Program-made: the position numbers and the translations under genes
Virus record (IMG/VR): IMGVR_UViG_2737471848_000024
Reading direction: 5' to 3' (one strand)
Origin: a virus
Lineage: Duplodnaviria > Heunggongvirae > Uroviricota > Caudoviricetes
DNA: 5,447 nt
The notes under the pieces: generated by a model
Database searches by the model: none
What the model was told of the DNA's origin: nothing
What the model saw: only the letters and a program-made list of their open reading frames with translations
In this document: piece after piece, positions 656 through 3,127 of the stretch
How the letters are laid out: each line of letters begins with the position of its first letter
How positions within the stretch are numbered: position 1 is the first letter of the stretch

Positions 656-3127
656 ATGAGTAAAGTCTTTATTTGCGCCGCCATTCCTGACGAACTGGCA
701 ACAAGGGAAGAAGGCGCTGTGGCTGTAGCCACAGCTATTGAAGCTGGCGACGAACGCCGTGCTCGAGCAAAATTTCACTGGCAATTCCTGGAACATTATC
801 CGGCTGCTCAGGACTGCGCTTATAAATTTATTATCTGCGAGGATAAACCTGGCATACCCCGCCCTGCCCTCGATTCATGGGATGCTGAATATATGCAGGA
901 AAACCGCTGGGATGAGGATTCTGCTTCTTTTGTCCCGGTTGAGACTGAATCCGATCTGATGAACGTCACTTTTGACAAGCTGGCCCCTGAAGTACAGAAC
1001 GCTCTCATGGTTAAGTTCGACACATGTGAAAACATCACCGTTGATATGGTTATTAGCGCACAGGAATTGTTGCAGGAAGACATGGCAACATTCAACGGAC
1101 ATATCGTTGAAGCGTTGATGAAAATGCCAGAAGTTAACGCCATGTATCCGGAGCTTAAGCTGCATGCCATCGGGTGGGTTAAGCATAAATGTAAGCCTGG
1201 TGCCAAATGGCCCGAAATTCAGGCAGAGATGCGCATCTGGAAAAAACGTCGCGAAGGTGAACGCAAGGAAACCGGAAAATACACGTCTGTTGTTGATCTC
1301 GCCCGCGCCAGAGTCAATCAACAGCACACTGAAAATTCAACAGGAAAAATCAGCCTGGTCATTGCTGCCATTCATCGCGAATACAAACAGACATGGAAAA
1401 CACTGGATGACGAACTGGCCTACGCTCTCTGGCCTGGTGATGTGGATGCCGGAAACATTGACGGCAGCATCCATCGCTGGGCAAAAAATGAAGTTATCGA
1501 CAACGACCGCGAAGACTGGAAGCGTATCTCGGCATCAATGCGCAAACAGCCTGATGCCCTTCGCTACGACCGCCAGACTATTTTTGGCCTTGTCCGTGAA
1601 CGTCCGATCGACATTCACAAAGACCCTGTGGCACTGAACAAATACATTACTGAATACCTGACTACAAAGGGCGTGTTTGAAGATGAAGGAACAAATCAGA
1701 GCGCAACTGACACTCTCTCGTCGCCAGTACCAGAAACTGATGCAGTGGAAACGGCAATTCCGGACAACGAAAAAACCGAATGCAAAGTGGAAGTCGAACC
1801 ATCTGTAGAGCGTGAGGGGCCGTTCTACTTCCTCTTCACCGACAAGGATGGCGAAAAATACGGTCGCGCAAACAAACTTTCTGGTCTGGATAAGGCACTG
1901 GCTGCCGGGGCTACTGAAATCACGAAAGAAGAATATTTCGCCCGCAAAAACGGTACATACTCAGGTTCACAACAAAATACTGGTGCATCTGACACGACCG
2001 CACAACCAGAGCCGGTAAAAGTTACCGCTGACGAAGTAAACAAAATTATGCAGGCAGCCAATATCAGCCAGCCTGACGCCGATAAGTTGCTTGCTGCCTC
2101 TCGCGGAGAATTTGTTGCAGGGATTAGCGACCCGAATGATCCGAAATGGGTTAAGGGGATCCAGACCCGCGATTCTGTAAACCAGAACCAGCATGAATCG
2201 GAACGGAACTACCAAAAAGCGGAACAAAACAGCCCAAATGCGTTACAAAACGAGCCAGAAACGAAACAGCCTGAACCAGTGGCGCAACAGGAAGTGGAAA
2301 AAGTCTGCACCGCCTGCGGTCAGACCGGCGGCGGCAACTGCCCTGATTGTGGCGCGGTGATGGGCGACGCAACATACCAGGAAACATTCGATGAAGAGTA
2401 TCAGGTTGAAGTTCAGGAAGATGATCCGGAGAAAATGGAAGGCGCTGAACATCCACACAAGGAGAACACTGGCGGCAATCAGCATCACGATAGCGATAAT
2501 GAAACTGGCGAGACGGCAGATCACTCAATTAAGGTGAACGGTCATCAAGAAATCACATCCACCAGCAGGACGTGTGACCATCTAATGATCGACCTTGAAA
2601 CCATGGGAAAAAATCCTGATGCCCCGATCATCTCAATAGGTGCAATATTTTTCGATCCGCAAACCGGAGATATGGGACCGGAATTTAGTAAGACTATCGA
2701 TCTGGAAACTGCTGGCGGAGTCATTGATCGGGACACCATTAAATGGTGGCTTAAGCAATCACGCGAAGCGCAATCTGCCATTATGACCGATGAAATCCAG
2801 TTAGATGATGCACTGTTACAATTGCGGGAATTTATCGACGAAAACTCCGGTGAATTTTTTGTTCAGGTCTGGGGAAATGGAGCCAACTTCGACAACACGA
2901 TTTTGCGCCGTTCATACGAACGGCAGGGGATCCCCTGCCCGTGGCGTTACTACAACGATCGCGATGTACGCACAATCGTTGAGCTGGGGAAAGCCATAGA
3001 CTTCGATGCCAGAACGGCTATTCCATTCGAAGGTGAGCGCCATAATGCACTTGATGACGCCCGTTACCAGGCAAAATACGTTTCAGCTATCTGGCAAAAA
3101 CTGATCCCGAGTCAGGCTGATTTTTAA
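656..3127 (+). CDS. Prophage exonuclease, 823 aa (annotated in enterobacterial prophages as exodeoxyribonuclease VIII-like / YdfE-like), with a C-terminal DEDDh 3'-5' exonuclease domain
   Basis: Long ORF with GAGG 10 nt upstream of the ATG. The C-terminal ~185 aa carries the three DnaQ-like motifs: MIDLETMG (Asp 2591-2593, Glu 2597-2599), WGNGANFD (Asp 2891-2893) and HNALDDARY (His 3041-3043, Asp 3056-3058). The middle ~290 aa are acidic and Gln/Asn/Thr-rich, and contain a [31 protein letters not shown] patch that I recall as shared with RecE-family proteins (uncertain). It occupies the position of ydfE in K-12 Qin. Confidence 0.85.
   Translation: [823 protein letters not shown]

Follow-up and report, generated by a model that had tools for sequence, protein, structure and literature searches.

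A portable four-cysteine module in the acidic tether of a RecE-like prophage exonuclease

RecE and RecT are the workhorse proteins of recombineering. RecE, the exodeoxyribonuclease VIII encoded by the Rac prophage, forms tetramers by way of its nuclease domain, and the role of its large N-terminal part has stayed open since full-length RecE was found to join pairs of linear DNAs better than the isolated nuclease domain does (PMC11611040). The N-terminal part, in which a four-cysteine (Cys4) motif lies, is dispensable for RecET recombineering; RecE truncations without the Cys4 still recombine (PMC11611040). A second described group is formed by the DnaQ-like nucleases of the Tritos class of lambdoid phages. 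In the available part of a survey of lambdoid Rec modules (Genome Res 2025, PMC12315714), this class is presented as nuclease-only, without annealing protein or anti-RecBCD function. Here, a gene of this second group was analysed in a stretch of 5,447 nucleotides of viral DNA (IMG/VR record IMGVR_UViG_2737471848_000024, hereafter the window, Caudoviricetes). Its product, a predicted 3'-5' exonuclease, carries between its N-terminal part and its nuclease domain a strongly acidic linker, in which a Cys4 module is embedded (Table 1).

The nuclease domain was clearly assigned. The Pfam family PF16473 matches with 226.4 bits for a cut-off of 27, all residues of the DEDDh motif (D646, E648, D746, H796 and D801) are present, and the nearest solved relative is chain 8kel_A, named 'Exodeoxyribonuclease' (E=1e-6). 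No match to DUF3799 or to the PD-(D/E)XK nuclease of RecE was obtained with the window protein. The protein is a DnaQ-like DEDDh exonuclease with predicted 3'-5' activity and polarity, and RefSeq holds an identical sequence (100%) labelled '3'-5' exonuclease' (WP_040061768.1). The gene shows 95% identity at the DNA level to a gene of the viable phages Tritos (TRITO_27), mEp460_ev081 and HannyBb. The gene order dicB, ydfD, exo, xis, int is also shared with the Tritos class. The gene class is already known as that of the DnaQ-like nucleases of Tritos-type modules. The survey deals with the type of nuclease and, in its available part, apparently not with the linker, its conserved islands or the Cys4 motif; zinc is mentioned there solely in a reference title on HNH endonucleases.

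In its middle part, the protein is built like RecE. Nucleotides 2075-2522 match recE with 83% identity in the prophage Rac-SA53 and 77% in K-12, with abrupt ends on both sides in blastn, and the homology stops at aa 623, about 20 residues ahead of the DEDDh domain. At the protein level, homology to RecE reaches further back, to aa 246-262 (BLASTP against Rac-SA53 RecE: aa 262-621, 42% identity). The helical domain, island B, the Cys4 module and the acidic tail are thus common to both proteins. In the 866-residue RecE of K-12, the Cys4 (C517, C520, C528 and C531) together with island B and the acidic tail lies directly ahead of the nuclease domain, and recE also occupies an early-left operon position beside xis and int. 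The differences lie at the two ends and downstream. The nuclease of RecE is a PD-(D/E)XK enzyme degrading 5'-3', whereas the DEDDh domain is predicted to act 3'-5'; the first 245 residues of the window protein are not of the PF06630 type (Exonuc_VIII N-terminal domain), for which Pfam gave no match in the window protein; and the gene is not followed by recT, neither in the RefSeq genome identical to the window nor in Tritos. The window protein is, from these predictions, a RecE scaffold fitted with a nuclease of opposite polarity. The sequence-only reading had taken the Cys4 motif as a feature of the exonuclease; its place in a cassette (aa 474-623) which precedes an unrelated nuclease in RecE assigns it to the scaffold instead.

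This architecture probably also accounts for a misleading annotation. The NCBIfam profile PRK09709 (exoVIII; NF007259) aligns to aa 246-625 only, with 285 bits for a cut-off of 1269, and this partial match through the RecE-like middle appears to be why many phage records, and thousands of prophage DEDDh exonucleases, bear the name 'exodeoxyribonuclease VIII'. Among the phage records inspected, six (H2, H5 and H18-H21) name the DEDDh exonuclease 'exodeoxyribonuclease VIII' or 'exonuclease VIII, ds DNA exonuclease'.

The relatives of the RecE-like middle are mosaics. Their N-terminus is either PF06630 or of the window type, and their C-terminus is the RecE nuclease, a DUF3799 PD-(D/E)XK nuclease or a DEDDh domain. 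Two relatives (P0210 and L100) combine a PF06630 N-terminus with a DEDDh domain; the second of them shares nucleotides 2015-3135 with the window at 96.5% and yet has the other N-terminus, with the junction at about aa 454. The occurrence of the same cassette ahead of DEDDh, RecE-type and DUF3799 nucleases suggests that the scaffold is nuclease-agnostic. The region is best read as the middle tether of the RecE family, a fast-evolving, acidic and largely disordered string between two replaceable parts, the scaffold at the N-terminus and the nuclease at the C-terminus. Three short constrained islands would sit on it as beads, the third of them being the Cys4 module, a putatively autonomous unit of about 30 residues. 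With moderate confidence, we consider this Cys4 to be an optional and portable mini-ribbon which is stabilised by a metal and exposes a docking surface.

The four Cys codons (2306-2308, 2315-2317, 2339-2341 and 2348-2350) encode C551, C554, C562 and C565, exactly at the positions reported earlier, as are the limits of the open reading frame and of the linker. The spacing was corrected from eight to seven residues in the central loop (GQTGGGN), which gives C-x2-C-x7-C-x2-C. A double CxxC separated by 2-20 residues arose in 69 out of 200,000 shuffles of the window protein, and a chance origin was rejected on this number and on the conservation of the motif. The full CxxC-x7-CxxC pattern is retained in 142 of the 149 related sequences covering the site. 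The seven others are for the most part fragments with frameshifts or deletions, and they include a three-Cys variant which is known from short fragments only (P0158 and P0159); one fragment (P0152) retains the second CxxC only. Codon-level comparison of five diverged genes, pooled, gave ratios of nonsynonymous to synonymous change (pN/pS) of 0.09 for island B and 0.23 for the Cys module, versus 0.50 for spacer 3 and 0.74 for the acidic tail. The expectation that the cysteines and their spacing are kept while the flanks vary was therefore borne out.

Conservation extends well beyond the putative metal ligands. Two alignments (A1 and A2) yielded the consensus [V]C-x2-CG-x2-GGG-x-CPDCG-[AP]-VMGDATY-x2-MF. 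Alignment A1 shows no variation at C8, G12, CPDCG, V, G and TY; the same holds in A2 for CPDCG, V, G and TY, with C8, C11 and G12 at 90% or more. Outliers from Aeromonadales, Plesiomonas and some Dam methylases differ in the first Cys pair, which reads CxCC or C-x6/8-C-x2-CPDC, and CPDCG-x-VMG-[DN]-x-TY is essentially fixed even in these. Met569 (2360-2362) lies inside the module, and many database 'proteins' begin there (among them P0138, P0147 and P0161), with phrog_14078 beginning nearby. Such entries look like gene-caller products of frameshifted or truncated copies and not like a real internal start.

The module was found in proteins of very different kinds. Besides RecE, the DEDDh exonucleases and RecE-like proteins with a DUF3799 nuclease, it forms the extreme C-terminus of D12-class Dam methylases of 311-327 aa encoded by P2-like phages and prophages of nine genera (Salmonella, Enterobacter, Klebsiella, Citrobacter, Yokenella, Kluyvera, Raoultella, Kosakonia and Mixta). 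It also occurs within a hypothetical protein of 299 aa from Aeromonas phages, and close to the C-terminal end of small proteins whose N-terminal parts are unrelated. One carrier has a replication-initiator-like N-terminus. Three of the small proteins could be placed. The Oceanisphaera protein (L095) is encoded next to a P2-type gpA replication gene, and two lie in Mu-like early regions (L096 and L109): one in Plesiomonas, with transposase A and B as neighbours, and P0183, with kil and gemA. All carriers that could be placed belong to early operons of temperate phages, near functions of replication, recombination or methylation. Nearly all matches come from temperate phages of Enterobacterales and Aeromonadales, with 21 matches in a set of one genome per species covering 185,579 species. 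Further searches added little to this diversity: tblastn of plasmids led back to the exonuclease, Dam and Aeromonas genes without revealing another type of carrier, a scan of IMG/VR returned 80 loci, all identical to the query, and a word-indexed profile search returned 10 short proteins only.

Such a unit of about 30 residues recurring in unrelated proteins is what would be expected of an autonomous module, and to this extent the proposal of a small interaction module has held; its metal-binding character is a prediction. The Dam methylases of P2-like phages (L085, L087, L088, L091 and L104) end with a short acidic tail following the module. Six of the nine genome-derived Dam proteins terminate in Phe (...FDDLEAF, ...FDGSEGF, ...TQEPF, ...GVEAF and ...FDDGEVF), as does the fragment P0227 (...FDDQEVF). 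The C-terminal tip of E. coli SSB is likewise acidic and Phe-terminated (DDDIPF). By analogy, the Phe-ended Dam tails resemble the SSB tip, and the tag may work together with an SSB-tail-like peptide.

The sharp limits of the cassette raise the question of whether the islands, Cys4 included, are kept mainly as patches of DNA homology for cassette swapping, with a peptide of little function. Nucleotide homology does end abruptly at nt 2075, where island B starts, and at nt 2522, some 20 codons before the nuclease domain; another junction lies at about aa 454, N- and C-terminal domains occur in many combinations, and 4363 out of 5426 complete E. coli genomes contain DNA of the module, some of them as many as 8 times. 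The pattern of substitutions argues against this explanation. In the 39 nucleotides coding for CPDCGxVMGDATY, the window differs from the Dam, Aeromonas, Oceanisphaera and Plesiomonas genes at 5-12 sites. Where the residue is unchanged the changes fall on third positions, and residues change at the x, D/N and A/T/S positions only. Moreover, the module is kept in the Dam and Aeromonadales phage genes, which share no flanking nucleotide similarity with the window around it. Free divergence of synonymous sites with fixed residues, observed among exonuclease, RecE, Dam and Aeromonas phage genes, points to purifying selection on the peptide, and the maintenance of homology patches as the main cause is considered improbable; a role in recombination is compatible with selection on the peptide and may be its by-product. 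Recent horizontal copying alone was rejected as the cause of the conservation on the same grounds. An antisense or overlapping gene was also rejected, since the variation falls on third positions of the plus frame opposite the minus-strand open reading frames 2151-2528 and 2243-2524.

The two Cys-x2-Cys knuckles offer four potential ligands (C551, C554, C562 and C565), as in zinc ribbons. The sub-threshold Pfam matches of the module from 19 members belong to zinc-ribbon families only, with Zn_Ribbon_TF in 16 out of 19, plus DZR, Zn_ribbon_3 and others; the best score across these members was obtained for Zn_Ribbon_TF (E=2.4e-4). Among solved chains, the best match is the N-terminal ribbon of MtrI (PDB 9qtr, chain 9qtr_i, E=0.007), in which KCEACGRESDTKYCNDCGKVM aligns with the knuckle of the window. 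MtrI is a small protein responding to oxygen stress; its 15-residue Cys4 ribbon contains zinc, as measured by inductively coupled plasma mass spectrometry, and is too flexible to be seen by cryo-electron microscopy (PMC12774963). This indicates that a knuckle pair as compact as that of the window can be a real zinc site. In both cases, the ribbon is a flexible appendage on a small or disordered polypeptide. With other mini zinc ribbons the module has in common the two CxxC(G) knuckles and a short Gly-rich or polar loop between them; it differs by its own invariant extension VMGDATYxxMF and by its confinement to temperate phages of Enterobacterales and Aeromonadales. The two knuckles would chelate one metal ion, probably Zn2+, and the metal would make a tiny ribbon rigid, on which the other invariant residues, which are not ligands (P, D, V, M, G, D, T, Y and M/F), would form the docking surface.

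No papers were found in literature searches with the motif strings, or with Rv2179c together with prophage, and the available parts of RecE reviews and of the lambdoid Rec-module survey mention neither zinc nor a Cys motif for the N-terminal region of RecE. As far as these searches reach, the module is a putative zinc ribbon that has not been described before; its distribution is narrow, its signature is its own and its carriers are unusual. A repeated CTEAGQTGGSHCSVCG in P0204, a 646-aa Gram-positive-like protein with PG_binding_1 repeats, was set aside as an unrelated knuckle repeat of a wall-binding protein. P0204 contains three copies of ...CTE[AS]GQTGGSHCSVCG[DQE]II...PTYI...LGH; the unit resembles the knuckle loop but stands in an extracellular wall-binding context and is probably convergent.

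Rubredoxins bind iron with the knuckles CxxCG and CPxCG, which lie about 29 residues apart in a domain of about 50 aa with an aromatic core. The knuckle signatures of the window, C-x2-C-G and C-P-x-C-G, are identical, and with the response of MtrI, the closest solved sequence analogue, to oxygen stress, they could hint at a switch that senses redox state or iron and would regulate the attached enzyme, by means of a rubredoxin-like Fe site or of a disulfide pair that forms reversibly. The spacer of 7 residues is far shorter than that of rubredoxin, however, and the aromatic hydrophobic core is absent; Pfam gave no rubredoxin match above noise, only individual knuckles at E 0.03 or worse. The ribbon of MtrI binds zinc and is itself thought to be structural (PMC12774963), and no other sign of redox control was seen in the phage operons of the carriers. 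A sensing function is thus highly improbable.

Several observations weigh against a metal-stabilised mini-ribbon. None of the Pfam gathering thresholds is reached by the module of the window, whose best score is 17.0 bits for DZR (threshold 27.3), with 14.8 bits for Zn_Ribbon_TF (threshold 29). The fold prediction proposed as a check did not return a confident fold either. AlphaFold2 (AF2) modelled the 45-aa module from 19 diverse sequences with a predicted local distance difference test score (pLDDT) of 56, showing isolated beta-bridges at the Cys and a helix at positions 29-36, and scored the Cys4 at 40-48 within the full protein; in both runs the metal was not modelled and the alignment was shallow. 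The metal may be iron instead of the zinc that the sequence makes probable. The variants of the first Cys pair in Aeromonadales, Plesiomonas and some Dam methylases indicate that the set of ligands is not strictly fixed. Finally, the absence of the Cys4 from about half of the relatives with island B, together with the three-Cys variant, means that any function it may have is dispensable in some contexts.

This last point was followed through the homologues. Among 31 long relatives (27 of the representatives clustered at 50% identity and four genome-derived proteins), 10 have island B and Cys4, 10 island B alone and 2 Cys4 alone. Many RecE-like proteins do without the module, for example those of Gifsy-1, Gifsy-2, SPN3UB and Klebsiella phages, which possess island B, and so do the intact DEDDh homologues P0134 and P0210, where island B is kept. 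Losses of Cys without loss of function had been named as what would speak against the module; these intact homologues and the recombination-proficient RecE truncations (PMC11611040) show that it is optional. The Cys4 is probably a small metal-stabilised docking tag and not a part of the nuclease, which would make it an optional accessory outside catalysis.

Two further alternatives to a docking surface for a protein were weighed. Zinc ribbons of primases, TFIIB and topoisomerase I touch nucleic acids. The Cys4 could accordingly be such a nucleic-acid-binding ribbon, holding the attached enzyme on DNA ends or single-stranded DNA and helping substrate capture, and the carriers that can be identified (RecE, the DnaQ-like exonuclease, Dam and the initiator-like protein) all act on DNA. 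The advantage of full-length RecE over its nuclease domain at joining two linear DNAs (PMC11611040) would fit as well. The composition does not: aa 551-580 contain no Lys or Arg and have a net charge of -5, with strongly acidic spacers on both sides, the modules of the small proteins contain one or two lysines only, and the conserved non-ligands (P, D, V, M, D, T and Y) are untypical of DNA contacts. Direct DNA binding is therefore quite improbable, and of the two docking partners offered by the sequence-only reading, protein or nucleic acid, the second is disfavoured.

Alternatively, the Cys4 could be an oligomerisation element, through an interchain metal bridge in the manner of a zinc hook or through a small dimer interface, which would pair enzymes and DNA ends. 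The fragments with two (P0152) or three Cys (P0158 and P0159) would be tolerated by intermolecular coordination, and bridging of ends could explain the preference of full-length RecE for linear-linear joining. Against this, four Cys within 15 residues with Gly-rich turns favour intramolecular chelation, and most of the sequences with two or three Cys are short fragments or result from deletions or frameshifts. RecE already tetramerises via its nuclease domain, and the module sits as a tag at the end of Dam and of the small proteins. Oligomerisation is accordingly very unlikely.

The docking surface remains the preferred function. Residues other than the ligands are invariant even though the carriers are very different, as would be expected of a surface for a specific interaction, and the putative partner would be conserved and more likely a protein than DNA. 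The position of the carriers in early operons near replication, recombination and methylation would fit a host component that acts where DNA is replicating or broken. Taken further, the module might be a shared 'address tag' which, by means of CPDCGxVMGDATYxxMF, brings RecE, the DnaQ-like exonuclease, Dam and the Mu- and P2-like small early proteins to one host hub at replicating or broken DNA, and which lies behind the efficient linear-linear recombination of full-length RecE. This extended proposal is rather unlikely as it stands.

The linker around the module was also characterised. The segment 1676-2560 corresponds in frame to aa 341-635 and was rightly described as strongly acidic and enriched in Gln and Asn: D+E amount to 20% and K+R to 8.5%, the net charge is -34 and the pI 4.4, and Q+N reach 13.6% as compared to 7-9% in the flanking domains, with 27% in aa 521-550. 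It also lies where it had been placed, between the N-terminal part and the DEDDh domain, of which the Pfam Rv2179c-like match begins at aa 642. The description as low-complexity held for the biased composition, not for the complexity itself. Shannon entropy in 30-aa windows is 3.48 bits in the linker versus 3.66 in the N-terminal part, and a repeat search found no tandem repeats, so that low complexity of the tandem-repeat type was rejected and 'compositionally biased' is the better term. One of the two peptides quoted earlier as examples (the second) was a misreading and differs from the actual sequence. In charge and hydropathy the segment resembles disordered proteins, and aa 507-547 and 581-635 are its most extreme parts. 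D+E amount to 29% in aa 341-388, where the net charge is -11, and the net charge of aa 581-640 is -11 as well.

Contrary to the earlier view of a lone knuckle in a linker that is disordered elsewhere, the Cys4 is one among three constrained islands, with two more at aa 386-435 and aa 474-506. In the full-length AF2 run, which was based on a 70-row alignment, aa 1-205 and 245-340 (the helical domain with pLDDT of about 90) were confidently folded, as was island A (pLDDT 76-86), with strands at 390-396, 399-405 and 420-422 and helices at 408-416 and 424-431. Residues 499-657, Cys4 included, stayed below 50, and the poor scores extended even to the DEDDh domain, probably as a result of alignment noise from shuffled domains. 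Island A (consensus ERxGPFYF..GRANKL..EITKEEYxARKNG) is kept in many of the 50%-identity representatives with unrelated flanks. Island B is highly conserved in sequence and structurally weak in the AF2 model. Spacer 3 shows indels among homologues and is well beyond the charge-hydropathy boundary, in the disordered range. No relatives of island A, of island B or of aa 241-345 were found in Pfam or PDB. A search with aa 341-640 matched 99 representatives out of 1.84 billion representative proteins. The island A unit of about 50 aa also occurs in many large phage proteins without island B or Cys4.

For RecE, the stretch just ahead of the nuclease can now be described as a string of three constrained islands, one of which is a portable Cys4 knuckle. 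This provides precise and inexpensive targets for mutagenesis (in RecE the residues C517, C520, C528 and C531; further, the VMGDATY motif and island B), and the module can also serve as bait for partners. The exchange of nucleases of predicted opposite polarity on one scaffold is documented as well. If the module were only a structural ornament, the finding would be that of a routine small zinc ribbon.

Table 1. Features of the window, with positions in nucleotides and residues of the exonuclease
Feature	Position	Strand	Residues	Remarks
dicB	186-374			directly upstream, in the order dicB-ydfD-exonuclease
ydfD (DUF1482)	371-562			immediately upstream of the exonuclease gene
3'-5' exonuclease gene	656..3127	+	823 aa	RecE-type scaffold with DnaQ-like nuclease
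Helical domain	1391..1675	+	246-340	homologue of the RecE middle region; last segment of the folded N-terminal part
Acidic spacer 1	1676..1810	+	341-385	predicted disordered; AF2 pLDDT 26-47
Island A	1811..1966	+	386-437	small predicted beta-beta-alpha-beta-alpha domain
Spacer 2	1967..2074	+	438-473	mostly disordered, one weak helix 458-467; AF2 pLDDT 25-50
Cassette common to recE of Rac-type prophages	2075..2522	+	474-623	blastn
Island B	2075..2173	+	474-506	pN/pS 0.09
Spacer 3	2174..2296	+	507-547	Q/N/E/P-rich; AF2 pLDDT 25-32
Cys4 module	2297..2395	+	548-580	Cys codons start at 2306, 2315, 2339 and 2348
Acidic His-rich tail	2396..2560	+	581-635	leads into the nuclease domain; AF2 pLDDT 21-29; pN/pS 0.74
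DEDDh (Rv2179c-like, DnaQ-like) 3'-5' exonuclease domain	2579..3094	+	642-813	PF16473
tRNA-Ser(cga)	4467-4556	-		ARAGORN

The whole window represents the int-proximal end of a lambdoid E. coli prophage of the Rac/Tritos type, located at tRNA-Ser/mtfA. A stretch 100% identical to it is present in E. coli strain OkiPb01684, where RefSeq gives the order racR ... dicB, ydfD, '3'-5' exonuclease', a DUF4224 excisionase-like gene, integrase, tRNA-Ser and mtfA. In phage Tritos, dicB and ydfD also lie upstream of the exonuclease and are there preceded by the DicF small RNA. The exonuclease is thus the last gene of the pL operon before xis and int.

The integrase open reading frame (3389-4414, 341 aa) corresponds to a frameshifted pseudogene (3389-4439) in the RefSeq genome identical to the window, and the prophage may therefore be defective in excision. 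About the first 180 positions of the window are the end of an IS3-family insertion element located upstream of dicB. The transposase annotation of RefSeq reaches window position 138, a fragment of dicB lies on the far side of the element, and many genomes match the window from position 181 onward only.

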